Source: an uncultured Clostridia bacterium (lineage in GTDB: Bacteria; Bacillota; Clostridia; Oscillospirales; Acutalibacteraceae). From it: DNA of 64,000 nt. Position 1 is the stretch's first letter. Each line of letters starts with the position of its first letter. Below are positions 3,660 to 64,000 of the stretch, in pieces. A model generated the notes under the pieces. It was not told the origin of the DNA. It made no database searches and worked only from the letters and a program-made list of their open reading frames with translations. The stretch is from assembly GCA_937906895.1 (NCBI GenBank), contig CALCTT010000100.1, positions 18,937-82,936 on the forward strand. The letters are read 5' to 3'. Both the position numbers and the translations under genes were made by a program.

Positions 3660-4622
3660 TTAGATTGAAATTTCGTGAGCAACCTTATACATATTAAGGT
3701 CAAGTGACTTTTTCATATTGAGTGCTTCAAAAATATCGTAATCTACAATTTCATCGTGCTGCATTGCGATAACTCTGTTGCCGATACCCTCTTTAAGAAG
3801 TTCAACAGCTTTGTTACCCATAAGAGAAGCAGTAACTCTGTCGCGAACTGTCGGATGACCACCACGCTGAACGTGTCCGAGAATTGTTGCACGTGATTCA
3901 ACACCTGTTTCATTTTCAATTCTCTTTGCCATTTCTTCAACGCCACCGATACCTTCAGCAACAACAATAATGAAATGTCTTTTACCTGTCAACTGTGTTC
4001 TCTTCATTCTGTCAATAACATCACGCTGGAAGTCATACTCAACTTCAGGAATAAGAATTGAAGTTGCACCACAAGCAATACCAGCGTTAAGTGCAATATA
4101 ACCTGCACGTCTGCCCATAACCTCAACAACTGTACAACGGTCATGTGATTCAGATGTATCGCGAAGTCTGTCAACCATCTGGAGAACAGTATTCATTGCA
4201 GTATCATAACCGATTGTATAGTCACTACATGCAATATCGTTGTCGATTGTTCCGGGAACACCAACACATGGAAGTCCACGGAGAGATAAGTCACGAGCAC
4301 CTCTGAATGAACCGTCACCACCAATTACAACGATACCGTCAAGTCCAACATCCTTAGCAACCTTAAGTGCTTTCTGAAGACCTTCTTCAGTTTTGAATTC
4401 AGGACTTCTTGCAGAATAAAGGAAAGTACCGCCACGATTGATAATGTTAGAAACTGAACGAAGGTTCATTTCATACATATCACCCTGCATAAGGCCATTA
4501 TAGCCTCTTCTGATACCCATAACACGCATTCCGTTTTCACATGCTGTACGAACAACAGAACGAATTGCAGCATTCATACCAGGAGCGTCGCCGCCACTTG
4601 TAAGTACACCTATAGTTTTCAT
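3660..4622 (-). CDS. pfkA: ATP-dependent 6-phosphofructokinase
   Basis: IGVLTSGGDAPGMNAAIR, GGDGS, PGTIDND motifs. Confidence 0.93.
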   Translation of the reverse strand: MKTIGVLTSGGDAPGMNAAIRSVVRTACENGMRVMGIRRGYNGLMQGDMYEMNLRSVSNIINRGGTFLYSARSPEFKTEEGLQKALKVAKDVGLDGIVVIGGDGSFRGARDLSLRGLPCVGVPGTIDNDIACSDYTIGYDTAMNTVLQMVDRLRDTSESHDRCTVVEVMGRRAGYIALNAGIACGATSILIPEVEYDFQRDVIDRMKRTQLTGKRHFIIVVAEGIGGVEEMAKRIENETGVESRATILGHVQRGGHPTVRDRVTASLMGNKAVELLKEGIGNRVIAMQHDEIVDYDIFEALNMKKSLDLNMYKVAHEISI

Positions 4623-34807: not shown

Positions 34808-35055
34808 CAGCAACCACACTCCACATATTCCCAAGGCCATGGGTCTTTAACCCACACATATCCGCTTCCGGATTTGTGTGTTAAAGGACCAAAACACTCT
34901 TCATATTCTTTTTTTAATTCCTTTGCTCTTTCTGAATATTTCCTGTGCATTTCAATTGCCTTTTCATCACAAGGATGGGTATCTAAATACAAATGAAGTT
35001 CCCAAGCAGCAAAACTTACTGCAGAAATCTCTCTTAATAATTTACATTTATCCAC
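34807..35055 (-). CDS. cotJB: spore coat protein CotJB
   Basis: LHLYLDTHP and DPWPWE motifs. GTG at 35055 has a GGAGG SD; the ORF track extends to the ATG at 35070. Confidence 0.8.
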   Translation of the reverse strand: MDKCKLLREISAVSFAAWELHLYLDTHPCDEKAIEMHRKYSERAKELKKEYEECFGPLTHKSGSGYVWVKDPWPWEYVECGC

Positions 35056-35236
35056 AACACTTACCTCCATAGAATTTTTTATCTAATTCAGGAAAAAGTG
35101 TTCCTTTTGACAACGCTTCACTACTTGTATAGGTAACAAGTTCTGTCTGAAATGGCACATAAGCCATTGCCACAACTACATCTGATGGCAATTTCGGCAT
35201 TTGTTTGCATTTATATTGACATTTATTATCTTCCAT
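35048..35236 (-). CDS. cotJA: spore coat-associated protein CotJA
   Basis: AMAYVPFQ...GTLFPELDKKF motif. First gene of the cotJABC arrangement. Confidence 0.75.
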   Translation of the reverse strand: MEDNKCQYKCKQMPKLPSDVVVAMAYVPFQTELVTYTSSEALSKGTLFPELDKKFYGGKCCG

Positions 35237-35311
35237 TTACTTATCTCCTTTGTTTATTTGAGTTTCCACTCAAAACATCATATTCAATTAAACAATAAAA
35301 TGTTATTTATA

Positions 35312-35340
35312 TTGAAATAAGAAAAAGTAAATGTTAAAAT
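35312..35340 (+). promoter_or_regulatory. sigma-A type promoter for the 35367 gene and the deo cluster
   Basis: TTGAAA (35312-17), 17 nt, TAAAAT (35335-40) with TG at the extended -10 position. Confidence 0.5.
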
Positions 35341-35366
35341 ATAAGTGAAGATGTGAGGTATTATGT

Positions 35367-59525: not shown

Positions 59526-60440
59526 TTATTTGAACGATAATGTTGCTGTTAATGGGAAATGGTCACTTGTATAATCACCATCATAAGTATCTGTAATTAC
59601 GCTGTATGAATGAACATTAAAATGGTCTTTTGAAATCATAATATAGTCGATACAATTACGGTCAAGCTGTTCTCCCCAATCCTGATATGTACAGCTTGTC
59701 ATAGTGTTTTCTGTCTGATACTTAACATCAAGAAAGCTTTCAGTTGCACTTCTGTATGTATCACTGTCCTCTTCGGCATTAAGGTCACCCATTAAAACTG
59801 CAGGAATTGAACCGAATTCCTTGATTTTATCAAGAACAACATTGATGCCATTAATTCTTGCCTCATCACTTATGTGGTCAAGATGTGTATTAAATACAAC
59901 AAATTCATTTGCTGTAGCTTTATCTTCAAGCACAACATAACTGCAAATTCTGTAACAAGCTGCTCCCCAGTCTTTACTCATAACATCAGGAGTTTCTGAC
60001 AACCAGAATGAACCCTTATCAACAAGAGTGTATAAATCAGTTCTGTAAAAAACAGGACATCCTTCGGAATAAACAGGTATATCGTCACGATAAGTAATAA
60101 TAGAATCATAGTCAGGCATTGTTTCGCAAAGATAATCATACTGCCAGCTGTTCACTTCCTGAAAACCGATAATTGTAGGTGCTGCCTTTTCAATAGTATC
60201 AACTACAAGGTTAGCACGATAGAACCAGTTCTTATGACCTAAATCATCAGGAGCGTGACAACGAATATTGTAGCTCATTATTTTGATTTCATCTGTATTG
60301 AATATTGTGTCCATAAGAATTTCTCTTTGATTCTTTGAGTAGTGAGGATAATAAACCCAGATTACAGCAAACCACAAAAGAAGAAATGCAAGAAGTAATG
60401 AAACAAATGGTAATAAAACCTTTTTAGCAAACTTTTTCAT
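59526..60440 (-). CDS. membrane-anchored endonuclease/exonuclease/phosphatase (EEP) family protein
   Basis: N-terminal TM helix, IMSYNIR, GFQEV, NTHLDH, SDHFP EEP motifs. Confidence 0.8.
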   Translation of the reverse strand: MKKFAKKVLLPFVSLLLAFLLLWFAVIWVYYPHYSKNQREILMDTIFNTDEIKIMSYNIRCHAPDDLGHKNWFYRANLVVDTIEKAAPTIIGFQEVNSWQYDYLCETMPDYDSIITYRDDIPVYSEGCPVFYRTDLYTLVDKGSFWLSETPDVMSKDWGAACYRICSYVVLEDKATANEFVVFNTHLDHISDEARINGINVVLDKIKEFGSIPAVLMGDLNAEEDSDTYRSATESFLDVKYQTENTMTSCTYQDWGEQLDRNCIDYIMISKDHFNVHSYSVITDTYDGDYTSDHFPLTATLSFK

Positions 60441-60509
60441 AGAATATTCACCTCACAAATATAATATCATAAACGCTGTAAAAAAGTAAAGAAAATATAA
60501 AAATAAAAC

Positions 60510-60538
60510 TTGAAAAATATTGAATGATATGATATTAT
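60510..60538 (+). promoter_or_regulatory. sigma-A type promoter of tRNA-Pro
   Basis: TTGAAA (60510-15), 17 nt, TATTAT (60533-38) with TG at the extended -10 position. About 16 nt upstream of the tRNA 5' end. Confidence 0.6.
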
Positions 60539-60554
60539 ATCTATCACAATCCAT

Positions 60555-60630
60555 CGGGGTGTGGCGCAGCTGGGAGCGCGCTAGACTGGGGGTCTAGAGG
60601 CCGCAGGTTCAAGCCCTGTCACTCCGACCA
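60555..60630 (+). tRNA. tRNA-Pro (anticodon GGG), CCA encoded
   Basis: Hand-folded cloverleaf. Acceptor CGGGGTG/CACTCCG, D stem GCGC/GCGC, anticodon stem CTAGA/TCTAG with loop CTGGGGG, T stem GCAGG/CCTGT with TTCAAGC loop, then ACCA. Confidence 0.9.
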
Positions 60631-60633
60631 AAA

Positions 60634-60661
60634 AAGATGATTCTTCGGAATCATCTTTTTT
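60634..60661 (+). terminator. intrinsic terminator of tRNA-Pro
   Basis: AAGATGATTC-ttcg-GAATCATCTT followed by a T run. Confidence 0.85.
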
Positions 60662-60678
60662 ATTCAATCCAAAGGATT

Positions 60679-60805
60679 GATATGTAATCACCCGCAGGAT
60701 GTATGTAATTACTGTGAGTATATAACATCACCACGAGTATATTTACTTGGATTGATTACATACATTTTTCAAAATGATTTCATTCCGCTATGCTGATTAC
60801 ATACA
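60679..60805. repeat. array of four copies of a 12-mer (TGATTACATACA or its complement) in a two-forward, two-reverse arrangement
   Basis: GATATGTAATCA 60679-90. TGTATGTAATTA 60700-11. TGATTACATACA 60753-64 and 60794-805 (identical copies). Confidence 0.55.
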
Positions 60806-60889
60806 CGGCTTTGCCGTGATTTAAACCTTGAAATGAACCGATTTGCATTTTAACACATTAAAGTAATAAAAATTATTTTTGTTTTTATA

Positions 60890-60918
60890 TTGACATTTTG
60901 ATTTTATAGGAATATAAT
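60890..60918 (+). promoter_or_regulatory. consensus sigma-A promoter of the pheA-tyrA-DAHP synthase operon
   Basis: TTGACA (60890-95), exactly 17 nt, TATAAT (60913-18). Confidence 0.75.
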
Positions 60919-60949
60919 ATGTAAAAATTCAGTTTTGAAGGTAATCAAT

Positions 60950-61057
60950 ATGAACTTAGCTCTTTATAGTGCAAGTAAATATTTCTTTAGCTTTAGCGTA
61001 GCTTTTTATTTTGGCTATGCTTATTTTGCTGTGAAAAAGTTACTTGTGAGAGCCTAA
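60950..61057 (+). CDS. 35-codon Phe/Tyr-rich leader peptide (MNLALYSASKYFFSFSVAFYFGYAYFAVKKLLVRA)
   Basis: ATG with a GAAGG SD 8 nt upstream. Codons 11-26 contain 6 Phe and 4 Tyr. Located between the promoter and a terminator upstream of pheA. Below the 60-aa cut-off of the ORF track. Confidence 0.6.
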   Translation: MNLALYSASKYFFSFSVAFYFGYAYFAVKKLLVRA

Positions 61058-61093
61058 AACATTCTTTAAAACTTATAAATTTTGTTTTTAGAT

Positions 61094-61127
61094 ACCTCAC
61101 TTGTAACAAATGCAAGTGAGGTTTTTT
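61094..61127 (+). terminator. attenuator terminator in the pheA leader
   Basis: ACCTCACTTGTA (61094-105) / TGCAAGTGAGGT (61111-22) with one G-U pair, loop ACAAA, T6 at 61122-27. 20 nt upstream of the pheA ATG. Confidence 0.8.
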
Positions 61128-61147
61128 ATCTGAAAGGAAAGATATTT

Positions 61148-62236
61148 ATGGCAAACAAATTGGAAGAAGCAAGAAAAATTATAAATAAAGTCGATGCTCA
61201 AATGGCAGAGTTATTTGTTGAGAGAATGAAGGCTGCTGAAATGGTGTCTGAATATAAAAAGGAGTTTGGTCTTCCTATTTTAGATAAAGAGAGAGAAAAT
61301 GCAGTTGTTGAAAAAAATGCTTTTCTTATAAATGACGATGTTATTAAGGAGTATTACATTGATTATATTAAAAATCTTATGAGTATTTCCCGTTCATATC
61401 AATATCGTTTGCAAAACGGTCTTAAAGTGGCTTACAGCGGTGTTGAAGGTGCTTTTGCTCACATTGCATCAGGAAGAATTTTCCCTGATTGTAACAGAGT
61501 TTCATACAGAGATTTCAAATCGGCTTATGACTCCGTTGTCCGTGGTGAAAGTGATGTTGCAGTTATTCCTATTGAAAACAGCTATGCAGGTGAAGTAGGA
61601 CAGACAATTGACCTTATTTTCTCCGGAAGTCTTTATATCAATGGTATTTATGAGCTTGAAATTCATCAGAATCTTTTAGGTCTTCCTGATGCCACAATTG
61701 ATGATATTAAGAAGGTAACAAGTCATCCACAGGCTCTCAGTCAATGTCACGACTATATTAAACTTCGTGGATTTGATACCGAAGAATCAAACAATACTGC
61801 AGTTGCTGCAAAGGCTGTTGTTGATAAAAATGACAAAACTCTCGGTGCAATTGCAAGTGTAGAAACAGCTGAAATTTACGGATTAAAGGTTATAGAGGCA
61901 AACATCAATAAAAGCGGTGAAAATACAACTCGTTTTGCTGTACTTTCAAAAGTTAAGGCTGACTCAGCTTCCCTTTCTAATTCAGTTCTTATGTTTACTG
62001 TAAAAAATGAGGCAGGTTCTCTTGCAAATGCTATCAGTATTATCGGTAAATACGGATACAATATGACAGCACTCAGAAGCCGACCCTTGAAAAAACACTC
62101 CTGGCAGTATTATTTCTATATAGAAATTGACGGAAAAACCAATAACGAAAACGGACAAAAAATGATTGAAGATTTGAGTAAGATTTGCGATAAACTGAAA
62201 ATCGCAGGTACTTATGCTCCTCATAGTGAAATATAA
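61148..62236 (+). CDS. pheA: bifunctional chorismate mutase / prephenate dehydratase with ACT domain
   Basis: N-terminal CM helix pattern (LEEARKIINKVDAQMAELFVERM), PDT domain (VAYSGVEGAFAH, TRF), C-terminal ACT. The ATG at 61148 has a GAAAGGAAAG SD; the ORF-track start at 61082 would include the terminator. Confidence 0.88.
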   Translation: MANKLEEARKIINKVDAQMAELFVERMKAAEMVSEYKKEFGLPILDKERENAVVEKNAFLINDDVIKEYYIDYIKNLMSISRSYQYRLQNGLKVAYSGVEGAFAHIASGRIFPDCNRVSYRDFKSAYDSVVRGESDVAVIPIENSYAGEVGQTIDLIFSGSLYINGIYELEIHQNLLGLPDATIDDIKKVTSHPQALSQCHDYIKLRGFDTEESNNTAVAAKAVVDKNDKTLGAIASVETAEIYGLKVIEANINKSGENTTRFAVLSKVKADSASLSNSVLMFTVKNEAGSLANAISIIGKYGYNMTALRSRPLKKHSWQYYFYIEIDGKTNNENGQKMIEDLSKICDKLKIAGTYAPHSEI

Positions 62237-62253: not shown

Positions 62254-63111
62254 ATGATAGTAGATGTTAGTAAAAAAATATGTATAGTGGGTCTTGGTCT
62301 TTTAGGCGGTAGTTATGCGAAAGCTTTGAAACGATTTGGTTTTCATATAAGTGCAATCACTAAAGAGCAAAGTTCTATCGACTATGCATTAAAAGAGAAG
62401 ATAATTGACGAAGGTTCAGCGGAAATTGATGAGAGAATTATCGGTGAAGCAGACATTGTGATTTTTGCACTTTATCCGCATATTTTTGTTGAATGGATTG
62501 AACAGAATCAAAAGCTACTCAAAAGTGGTGCACTGCTTACTGACGTAACAGGTGTTAAGTGCAGTATTGTTTATAAAATACAGGAAATGCTTCGTGATGA
62601 TGTTGAGTTTATTTCTGCTCATCCAATGGCAGGACGAGAGGTTTCAGGCGTTGAAAACAGTACAACTAAAATGTTTAATGGTGCTAACTATATTGTAACT
62701 CCAACAAACAAGAATACTCCCGAAGCAATAAGCACTTGTATGGAGCTTGGTAAACTGCTTGGATTTTCAAATGTTACTACTCTATCCCCTGAAGAACACG
62801 ATGAAATGATAGGCTTCCTGTCACAGCTTACTCACTGTATTGCAATCACTCTGATGACTTGTAATGACAAGGAGAATATGGAAAAGTTTACAGGTGACTC
62901 ATTCCGTGACCTTACAAGAATTGCCCGAATTAATGACCTTATGTGGAGTGAGTTATTTATTGAAAATAAAGATGTTCTCTTAAATCAGATGAAAAGTTTT
63001 ATTGATAAATTTAATGAGCTTAAAACAATGCTTGAAACAGAAGATGTTGACGGTATGAGAAAAATGATGCGTCATTCAACTGAACGAAGAGCATTATTTG
63101 ACAAAGAATAA
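62254..63111 (+). CDS. tyrA: prephenate dehydrogenase
   Basis: ICIVGLGLLGGSYA NAD motif, SAHPMAG catalytic motif. Confidence 0.88.
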   Translation: MIVDVSKKICIVGLGLLGGSYAKALKRFGFHISAITKEQSSIDYALKEKIIDEGSAEIDERIIGEADIVIFALYPHIFVEWIEQNQKLLKSGALLTDVTGVKCSIVYKIQEMLRDDVEFISAHPMAGREVSGVENSTTKMFNGANYIVTPTNKNTPEAISTCMELGKLLGFSNVTTLSPEEHDEMIGFLSQLTHCIAITLMTCNDKENMEKFTGDSFRDLTRIARINDLMWSELFIENKDVLLNQMKSFIDKFNELKTMLETEDVDGMRKMMRHSTERRALFDKE

Positions 63112-63128: not shown

Positions 63129-64000
63129 ATGAAACACAATATGGAATTCAAACGCAAATTACCAATACCAAAGGAAATTAAAGAACAATATCCTCTTACT
63201 CCTGAGCTTGAAGCAATCAAGGTAAAGAGAGATGAAGAAATAAAGAATATATTTGAAGGTAAAGACGACAGATTTGTTTTAGTTATCGGTCCTTGCTCTG
63301 CAGATAAAGACGACAGTGTAATTGATTACATTTATCGTTTAAGAACCGTTCAGGACAAGGTTTCTGACAAAATTATGATTATCCCAAGAATTTACACTAA
63401 CAAGCCGAGAACAACCGGTGACGGATACAAAGGTATGCTTCATCAGCCTGACCCTAACAAAGGCGAAGATATGTTAAAAGGCGTTGTTGCTATCAGAAAT
63501 CTTCATATTAGAGCAATTAAAGAAACAGGCTTTACATGTGCTGACGAAATGCTTTACCCTGAAAACTACAGATACCTTTCTGATATTTTAGCTTATGTTG
63601 CAATCGGTGCAAGGTCCGTTGAAAACCAGAAGCACAGACTTACTTCAAGTGGTCTTGACATTCCTGTTGGTATGAAAAATCCGACAGGCGGTGATATTTC
63701 AGTTATGATGAATTCAATCACTGCTGCTCAACATCCACACACATTTATTTACAGAGGTTGGGAAGTTGAAAGCAAGGGAAATCCTCTTGCTCATGCAATT
63801 TTAAGAGGTTATGTCAATAAGCACGGACAGTCATTGCCTAACTACCACTATGAAGACCTTATTCATCTTGCTGAAACTTATGCAAAAACTAATTTAAGCA
63901 ATCCTGCTGTTATCATTGATACAAACCACGCTAACTCAGGAAAACAGTGGATGGAACAGCCAAGAATTGCAAAGGAAGTACTTCACAGCTGTCGTCATTC
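63129..64000 (+). CDS. 3-deoxy-7-phosphoheptulonate (DAHP) synthase, class I; 3' end outside window
   Basis: My own translation from the ATG at 63129 (GGAGG SD): ...LVIGPCSADK, KPRTTGDGYKG, GARSVENQ, GMKNPTGG motifs. Frame open to the window end, so absent from the ORF track. Confidence 0.85.
   Translation, partial: MKHNMEFKRKLPIPKEIKEQYPLTPELEAIKVKRDEEIKNIFEGKDDRFVLVIGPCSADKDDSVIDYIYRLRTVQDKVSDKIMIIPRIYTNKPRTTGDGYKGMLHQPDPNKGEDMLKGVVAIRNLHIRAIKETGFTCADEMLYPENYRYLSDILAYVAIGARSVENQKHRLTSSGLDIPVGMKNPTGGDISVMMNSITAAQHPHTFIYRGWEVESKGNPLAHAILRGYVNKHGQSLPNYHYEDLIHLAETYAKTNLSNPAVIIDTNHANSGKQWMEQPRIAKEVLHSCRH

Follow-up and report, generated by a model that had tools for sequence, protein, structure and literature searches.

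The DNA analysed here is a stretch of 64,000 nucleotides (nt) on contig CALCTT010000100.1 of an uncultured Clostridia bacterium (Acutalibacteraceae), referred to below as the window. At its end lie three genes of aromatic amino acid biosynthesis, pheA, tyrA and an aroF-type DAHP synthase gene, which follow each other on the forward strand with gaps of 17 nt each. In the region immediately upstream of pheA (60890-61147), a consensus promoter, a small open reading frame (ORF) containing numerous phenylalanine and tyrosine codons, and an intrinsic terminator are arranged one after another (Table 1); transcription is expected to start near 60925, and the pheA start codon is located 20 nt past the T run of the terminator. 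An original prediction, made from the sequence of the window alone, held this region to be an attenuator controlled by translation of the small ORF. Our comparative analysis points the same way: 60890-61147 is probably a ribosome-mediated (leader-peptide) transcription attenuator of the pheA-tyrA-aroF operon that senses charged tRNA-Phe and tRNA-Tyr. The predicted coordinates of the promoter, ribosome-binding site, ORF, terminator and pheA start all stood when the sequence was re-read, and translation of the ORF confirmed the predicted Phe and Tyr content of codons 11-26.

Table 1. Features of the pheA leader region and its surroundings. Positions are those of the window, except for T-boxes, which are given in the coordinates of the named locus.
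Feature	Position	Strand	Remarks
tRNA-Pro terminator	60630-60661		directly after tRNA-Pro; perfect 14-bp hairpin (AAAAAAGATGATTC/GAATCATCTTTTTT) and T run
Promoter, sigma-70-type, TTGACA-17-TATAAT	60890-60918	+	12/12 consensus matches; 17-nt spacer
-35 hexamer TTGACA	60890-60895	+	
-10 hexamer TATAAT	60913-60918	+	
Ribosome-binding site GAAGGTA	60937-60943	+	core GAAGG 60937-60941; 8 nt before ATG at 60950
Leader ORF	60950-61057	+	35 codons; MNLALYSASKYFFSFSVAFYFGYAYFAVKKLLVRA
Segment 1 (proposed anti-antiterminator 5' strand)	60958-60979	+	AGCUCU and GCAAGUAAA, each able to pair with segment 2
Regulatory codon block, codons 11-26	60980-61027	+	6 Phe and 4 Tyr
Hairpin P	60995-61021	+	AGCGUAGCU, loop UUUUAUUUU, GGCUAUGCU; then UAUUUUGCU; -11.7 kcal/mol
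Segment 2 (predicted antiterminator 5' strand)	61039-61053	+	GUUACUUGUGAGAGC; last sense codons of the ORF
Intrinsic terminator (segments 3 and 4)	61094-61127	+	stem 61094-61105 with 61111-61122; loop ACAAA; T6 61122-61127
pheA (chorismate mutase, prephenate dehydratase, ACT domain)	61148-62236	+	Pfam CM_2, PDT, ACT
tyrA (prephenate dehydrogenase)	62254-63111	+	Pfam PDH_N, PDH_C
aroF-type DAHP synthase gene	63129-64000	+	Pfam DAHP_synth_1; continues beyond window end
T-box at pheA position, L024	2626-2870		
T-box at pheA position, L046	2699-2949		
T-box at pheA position, L058	2645-2894		
T-box at pheA position, L075	2623-2876		
T-box at pheA position, L079	1043-1291		

Related loci were collected by a PheA-based scan with one genome per species, which yielded 80 loci encoding PheA proteins 79-92% identical. 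All of these come from metagenome-assembled genomes (MAGs) derived from ruminant and other animal guts, labelled as Acutalibacteraceae, Ca. Fimenecus, Congzhengia, Ructibacterium, Oscillospiraceae or 'Clostridia bacterium'. The same small ORF is present ~200 nt upstream of pheA in 53 of the 80 loci, together with its Phe/Tyr codons, ribosome-binding site, start codon, terminator and a complement able to act as antiterminator, so that the conservation on which the original prediction depended is indeed found. In an alignment of 51 of the leaders, the conserved blocks are the promoter hexamers, the GAAGGTA ribosome-binding site, the ATG, the Phe/Tyr core, the sequence GTTACTTGTGAG near the end of the ORF and the two terminator arms (CCTCACTTGTAAC and GCAAGTGAGG), with the spacers and the terminator loop varying freely. 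Each promoter hexamer is at least 90% conserved, with 3.7 and 2.2 Fitch changes per site in the two hexamers compared to 10.7 in the spacer. Two G residues of the ribosome-binding site are invariant, as is the leader ATG, and the remainder of the site is at least 90% conserved. Across the family the ORF spans 27-46 codons and contains about ten codons for Phe or Tyr.

The distribution of the leader extends beyond pheA. A peptide profile search, for which a 40-aa TTG-start version of the leader ORF was used as the query, retrieved 98 clusters from a protein collection, all unnamed or 'hypothetical' and free of Pfam domains; searches of Pfam and NCBIfam with the leader peptide gave no matches. 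Divergent members found with the profile were followed to their contigs (stated n=8). Leaders were found in front of aroF alone (L081, L082 and L086), in front of tyrA-aroF (L083, L084, L088 and L090) and in front of pheA-aroB-aroC or pheA-aroB-aroE (L085, L087 and L089). A scan of metagenomes for the core of the leader resulted in 12 contigs, 11 of which carry pheA or tyrA-aroF downstream, the remaining one ending too early. In all instances of the leader, the downstream gene, where it can be read, is pheA, tyrA or aroF.

Some loci differ in the placement of the leader. In L003, L013, L036, L042, L085 and L089 it is located within an operon, without a promoter of its own in front, following a phenylacetate-CoA-ligase-like (AMP-binding) gene and a small ACT-domain gene; in this sub-lineage segment 2 reads AAGAGUGAGUUUUAG and the peptide ends with KSEF. 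In L031 and L053 there are ~100 extra nt between the terminator and pheA, which puts the start of the leader ORF at about -304 and -307, respectively, compared to about -200 elsewhere. In two near-identical aroF-type loci, the start of aroF has been called at 4149 (L081) and at 4356 (L082), in the region 4100-4360, and ~190 nt between the terminator and aroF of L082 are unaccounted for.

The pattern of changes within the ORF suggests that it is translated. Between the ATG and codon 27 there have been at least seven insertion or deletion events, each a multiple of three nucleotides (+3 in L042, L011 and L073; -3 in L028/L038/L047, in L062 and in L036; -6 in L060). Frameshifts and early stops are confined to the region that follows the Phe/Tyr core: directly past the core we observed a +1 shift in L077, a -1 shift in L062 and premature stop codons in L008 and L061. 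When changes at the ten Phe/Tyr codons were placed on the PheA tree, they numbered 6, 29 and 30 at the first, second and third codon positions. Of the 35 non-synonymous events at these codons, 22 were interchanges of Phe and Tyr and 13 were others, where single-base neighbours would lead one to expect an interchange in one of eight cases (binomial p = 4e-12). As a neutral yardstick, third positions of pheA have undergone 13.5 changes per site, so the species compared are saturated at unconstrained sites. Conservation of the ribosome-binding site and start codon, in-frame insertions and deletions, and substitutions dominated by Phe/Tyr interchange argue that the leader ORF is translated and, as judged from the alignment, selection on its Phe/Tyr codons acts at the level of the codon.

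The 3' part of the leader is conserved in a different manner. The terminator at 61094-61127 was the sole terminator-like site recovered by a terminator scan of 60400-61400, a region for which shuffled sequences give 0.4 sites. Its 12-bp stem has a folding energy of -17.5 kcal/mol, and its basal pairs covary among the leaders (AU 17, GC 15, GU 15) with a score that none of 500 shuffles reached. Its 5' arm, of sequence CCUCACUUGUAAC, has changed unusually little (1.75 changes per site). The original prediction had this arm paired alternatively with the last sense codons of the ORF, and such pairing was confirmed: GTTACTTGTGAG (61039-61050) matches CTCACTTGTAAC (61096-61107) at 10 of 12 positions around a UU/UU internal loop, with an RNAduplex energy of -14.7 kcal/mol. 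Of 61 leaders examined, 59 have a complement to the terminator 5' arm where the ORF ends; in the other two (L004 and L045) the terminator was mis-detected, and these were excluded. Divergent leaders pair through different sequences (UUGCAAGU:ACUUGCAA in L082, CGAGUGAG:CUCACUUG in L083; the corresponding sequence in L086 is UGCAAGUGAGA). Furthermore, the nucleotides of GTTACTTGTGAG remain unchanged where the frame is broken (+1 in L077, -1 in L062) or the ORF ends earlier (L008 and L061). Segment 2 is therefore conserved as RNA and not as peptide. The proposed coupling of a Phe/Tyr leader ORF to the choice between terminator and antiterminator is thus supported by the frame, by the Phe/Tyr interchanges and by the complements in 59 of 61 leaders.

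The four-segment layout originally proposed is supported in silico for the 2:3 and 3:4 pairings, and segment 1 is compatible with it. The 1:2 pairing is present in the minimum free energy (MFE) structure, has 92.6% of alignment cells paired and has a median duplex energy of z = -2.6 over 59 leaders; it displays hardly any covariation and its register is ambiguous, an alternative making use of GCUCU (60959-60963). No other part of the model is as insecure as the assignment of segment 1. For the 2:3 pairing, 95% of the alignment cells are paired, with few compensatory pairs. RNAalifold, run on the 51-leader alignment, recovered only hairpin P (described below), a short AGUAAA:UUUUGC extension and the terminator; neither the 1:2 nor the 2:3 helix was among the results, and explicit tests of the two revealed marginal covariation only. 

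The whole leader folds with -62.4 kcal/mol, z = -6.6 relative to shuffled sequences. When codons 11-13 were masked as if occupied by a stalled ribosome and the transcript was ended at 61110, the 2:3 helix appeared in the MFE structure (-15.8 kcal/mol, compared to -17.5 kcal/mol for the terminator). Constrained folding gave the 1:2 hairpin together with the terminator both when no ribosome was placed on the leader and when one stood at the stop codon. The masked folds thus show the switch that was expected.

Within the ORF, the regulatory codons overlap a second conserved structure, hairpin P, the loop of which consists of the codons for Phe19, Tyr20 and Phe21. In the alignment, 98.5% of its cells are paired and the loop-closing pair covaries (CG 29, UG 11, UA 9), the observed score being reached by 0 of 500 shuffles; compensatory pairs were also found in two divergent leaders, L042 and L085. 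The stem is near-invariant at its synonymous sites (e.g., the GCU codon of Ala24 shows 0 changes), and such sites in the core as a whole have undergone 0-3 changes per site, compared to 13.5 at pheA third positions. Hairpin P explains the apparent conservation of Ser16, Val17, Ala18, Gly22 and Ala24. The corresponding peptide core, FSV(A/V)FYFGYAYFA, is well conserved and hydrophobic, with Lys residues on its flanks. Unlike in ordinary leader peptides, the core is kept to the nucleotide level across genera and in front of different downstream genes.

TTNTTT motifs, which act as the pause signal for NusG in Gram-positive bacteria (PMC9963633, PMC11602163), are present in the leader at 60983, 61006 and 61021, although runs of Phe and Tyr codons generate such motifs automatically. 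Hairpin P and the U-rich tract that follows it might speculatively be regarded as a pause site for RNA polymerase. It is also conceivable, if doubtful, that the core (hairpin P and FSV(A/V)FYFGYAYFA) constitutes a second sensing layer, which would make the element a hybrid of an attenuator and a ligand- or factor-sensing device. One possibility for such a layer would be a NusG-type programmed pause element built from the regulatory codons themselves through their TTNTTT motifs; others would be a nascent aromatic peptide, or an RNA hairpin, responding directly to free Phe or Tyr or to tRNA.

T-boxes are the textbook solution to the regulation of such genes in Oscillospirales and related Clostridia, and at several of the related loci they stand in for the leader. 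In five sister species, whose PheA proteins are about 80-83% identical, a T-box (98-109 bits) occupies the position where the leader would be (Table 1). The five share an invariant AGUA ... GAA-UUC, and with GAA-UUC read as a Phe specifier from the T-box architecture they are apparently Phe-specific. In L002, L034, L057 and L059 the leader ORF has been lost, the terminator remains and a T-box heads a paaK-ACT-pheA operon, and in three further species (L021, L048 and L070) the leader ORF is decaying. L043 presents yet another arrangement: ~200 nt upstream of pheA-aroB-aroC, at 2709-2765, there is a different, unrelated Phe/Tyr-rich leader ORF, MNNKAYFYFYYLRRADRL, with its own promoter, apparently the same device arrived at independently. 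That locus also contains a T-box further upstream, before paaK-ACT.

The region 60890-61147 is thus a real, well-conserved cis-regulatory element; its anatomy, its conservation and frame, the codon-level selection, the complementarity of its segments, its association with particular genes and its replacement by T-boxes are all apparent in the genomes compared. Regarding its mode of action, we propose that the strong promoter would drive a leader of ~200 nt carrying the Phe/Tyr-codon ORF, in which segment 2 is complementary both to segment 1, upstream in the ORF, and to segment 3, the 5' arm of the terminator. With Phe and Tyr plentiful, the ribosome would run to the stop codon, and segment 2 would either be covered or re-pair with segment 1 behind the ribosome. 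Segment 3 would then pair with segment 4 to give the terminator, ending transcription at ~61127. If charged tRNA-Phe or tRNA-Tyr were scarce, the ribosome would stall on codons 11-26, leaving the 1:2 hairpin open and segment 2 free. The latter would pair with segment 3 once this is made, no terminator would form and RNA polymerase would enter pheA. Hairpin P and the U-rich tract may pause RNA polymerase and so give the ribosome time to draw level, which is the most speculative step of the scheme. We infer that the ORF is actually translated and the ribosome stalls, that the competition is kinetic and that the 1:2 pairing plays a part in it.

Several observations weigh against this interpretation. 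All relatives are MAGs and the case rests on sequence. The segments are conserved so strongly that the 1:2 and 2:3 helices show little covariation. Even when the ribosome has stalled, the terminator is favoured at thermodynamic equilibrium, and the model therefore has to invoke kinetic control. The position of the stop codon ranges from 82 to 139 nt into the ORF, and in about half of the leaders it lies 12-13 nt beyond segment 2; a ribosome terminating at such a distance would leave segment 2 exposed, in which case the model leans on the poorly supported 1:2 pairing. Nor is the density of Phe and Tyr codons, ten in 16, significant in a window of 34% G+C. An antisense ORF at 60453-60554 on the reverse strand, YHSIFFKFYFYIFFTF, which served as a control for chance, likewise contains ten such codons in 16, so Phe/Tyr richness by itself does not distinguish the leader, which qualifies the original prediction; what lies beyond chance is its conservation in other genomes. 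The antisense ORF (Phe/Tyr stretch near 60529) is located in an AT-rich spacer upstream of tRNA-Pro. Finally, synonymous sites of the core are far more conserved than an attenuator requires, which hints at a further function.

This last observation also speaks for an alternative in which the conserved core, that is hairpin P with its flanks, is itself an RNA sensor that controls the terminator by binding a small molecule (Phe or Tyr), a protein or an uncharged tRNA, the ORF being incidental or auxiliary. The conservation of nucleotides indeed includes the synonymous sites of the core (0-3 vs 13.5 changes per site), the core persists in otherwise divergent leaders, hairpin P covaries and the leader fold is far from random (z = -6.6). 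However, an RNA sensor accounts neither for the three-base periodicity of the changes, the dominance of Phe/Tyr interchanges and the in-frame insertions and deletions in the core, nor for the conserved ribosome-binding site and ATG. The leader has no match to any Rfam family including the T-box, and no T-box sequence; its eight (G/U)AG triplets lack the regular spacing of a TRAP site, and a ligand pocket would be expected to be larger and more elaborate than this hairpin. We therefore consider this alternative unlikely.

The peptide might instead be functional, as a small hydrophobic single-pass membrane protein co-transcribed with pheA, with the hairpin downstream of it acting as an ordinary leaky terminator. 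The conserved, hydrophobic core FSV(A/V)FYFGYAYFA with its flanking Lys residues would suit such a protein, and gene callers have called the ORF as a gene 98 times. However, several species have a frameshifted or truncated C-terminus but nonetheless conserve its nucleotides, synonymous sites are constrained, and Phe and Tyr interchange freely. Moreover, the ORF is restricted to positions in front of pheA, tyrA or aroF, is replaced there by T-boxes and decays where a T-box controls the operon, all of which makes a membrane protein very unlikely. A chance ORF in AT-rich DNA, combined with a plain terminator of upstream transcription, might be invoked given that a second 10-in-16 Phe/Tyr stretch arises by chance in the window, but it is extremely improbable, as frame-preserving conservation over more than 60 genomes and contigs already contradicts it and the upstream tRNA-Pro has its own terminator (60630-60661), with the consensus promoter between that terminator and the ORF.

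The tRNA-Pro terminator also delimits the transcription unit: with it in place, the pheA leader is a separate unit. The consensus terminator scan overlooks this hairpin because it contains too few G-C pairs. Between the tRNA-Pro terminator and the pheA promoter, at 60681-60805, a motif of 10-12 nt occurs four times, as TATGTAATCAC and TATGTAATTAC in one orientation and as TGATTACATACA twice in the opposite one, and there are several inverted-repeat pairs; the copies could represent a transcription-factor operator array, or the remnant of an element integrated beside the tRNA. An nhmmer search with the leader profile detected no second copy of the leader in the 64-kb window, and no attenuator-like features were found in the largest other intergenic gap (34841-35366). 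The latter gap lies 5' of a nucleoside catabolism operon (deoC, a gene for a metalloenzyme-superfamily protein, cdd and pdp).

At the gathering threshold, the only Rfam match in the whole window was tRNA-Pro. With E <= 10, the region 60640-61250 gave 17 matches, none of them to the T-box, to Phe_leader (RF01859) or to the Lactococcus leu/phe leader (RF01743); weak matches to archaeal sRNA41, PyrR (26/54 bits) and the PyrG leader were driven by the terminator and were rejected as chance. The T-box model, RF00230, which finds the T-boxes of the sister loci at 98-109 bits and so provides a positive control, did not match the leader of the window even at E <= 10, and neither a Stem I, a specifier or T-box sequence nor a GGUGGUACC-like core is present in it. 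The absence of T-box architecture claimed originally is thus upheld. A TRAP-type leader, which would have about 11 (G/U)AG repeats with spacers of 2-3 nt, was likewise rejected, 60925-61093 containing only eight such triplets at irregular spacing. Rfam searches with the aroF-type leaders L082 and L086 matched nothing.

If confirmed, the element would represent a widespread family of attenuators of aromatic amino acid biosynthesis in Oscillospirales and related gut Clostridia, encompassing more than 60 species-level genomes, all uncultured. Sister species that carry a Phe T-box, a Phe/Tyr leader peptide or a second, unrelated Phe/Tyr leader at the same gene would offer a side-by-side natural case for studying how sensors of tRNA charging replace one another. 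The annotation of MAGs, where the leader ORF is now absent or listed as 'hypothetical protein', would be corrected as well, and a covariance model could flag pheA, tyrA and aroF regulons. As a mechanism this is classical, and the advance lies in distribution and evolution, not in principle.

Leader-peptide attenuators have seldom been described in gut Clostridia but are established in the same phylum, Clostridia included, and the original description of the element as unusual and possibly undescribed was overstated in this respect. Attenuators with His leader peptides have been predicted in the Bacillus cereus group (PMC2965389) and in Peptostreptococcaceae, Lutispora and Erysipelotrichales (PMC9413887), a Leu-rich attenuator peptide of ilv-leu has been shown in Staphylococcus aureus (PMC5794164), as has an ilv attenuator in Listeria (PMC5864092). 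These His and branched-chain amino acid leaders belong to the same class of mechanism and, like the leader described here, stand in for T-boxes, the swap of T-box and leader peptide at the same gene being a recurrent theme (PMC2965389). They differ from it in amino acid specificity, sequence and lineage, and none of them is located on Phe/Tyr genes of Oscillospirales. The Phe T-box (RF00230), for its part, shares with the leader the position at pheA, the tRNA-Phe charging signal and the choice between terminator and antiterminator, but reads uncharged tRNA directly, without translation.

The closest functional counterpart in Escherichia coli is pheL-pheA (and pheM-pheST), 53 pheL genes having been described in gamma-proteobacteria (PMC3082878). 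Both systems feature a short ORF with many Phe codons, joined by Tyr in pheM, pheA lies downstream of pheL as it does of the present ORF, and the end of the ORF or leader forms, or in the window would form, an antiterminator against a terminator just upstream of the structural gene, the logic in each case being that stalling leads to readthrough. However, the two have no similarity in sequence or in covariance model (RF01859). The ORF of the window is about twice as long, its ten Phe/Tyr codons are interspersed and not in a run, and Phe and Tyr are mixed. In addition, the operon of the window includes tyrA and aroF, a conserved hairpin is located inside the ORF and the host belongs to Clostridia.

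A motif closer to the present family is uORFC-13-1, an upstream ORF motif published in front of aroF (DAHP synthase) from Acholeplasma and environmental sequences, with 24 representatives (Brewer et al. 2021, PMC8632094). It displays conserved -35 and -10 elements, a ribosome-binding site, a start codon, a U run encoding Phe, a base-paired substructure and an adjacent intrinsic terminator, and was proposed to sense the rate of Phe incorporation; the description speaks of 'at least one' Phe codon and of aroF only (PMC8632094). Some members of the present family also precede aroF alone (L081, L082 and L086). The AroF protein of L082 has relatives under the names Clostridia or Oscillospiraceae, with no Acholeplasma among them. 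The comparison was made by published description only, as uORFC-13-1 is not in Rfam 15, and judged from that description the motif may be related to the present family. No family in Rfam, Pfam or NCBIfam matches the pheA leader, which is very probably a Phe/Tyr leader-peptide attenuator and would add a family to a long-known mechanism.

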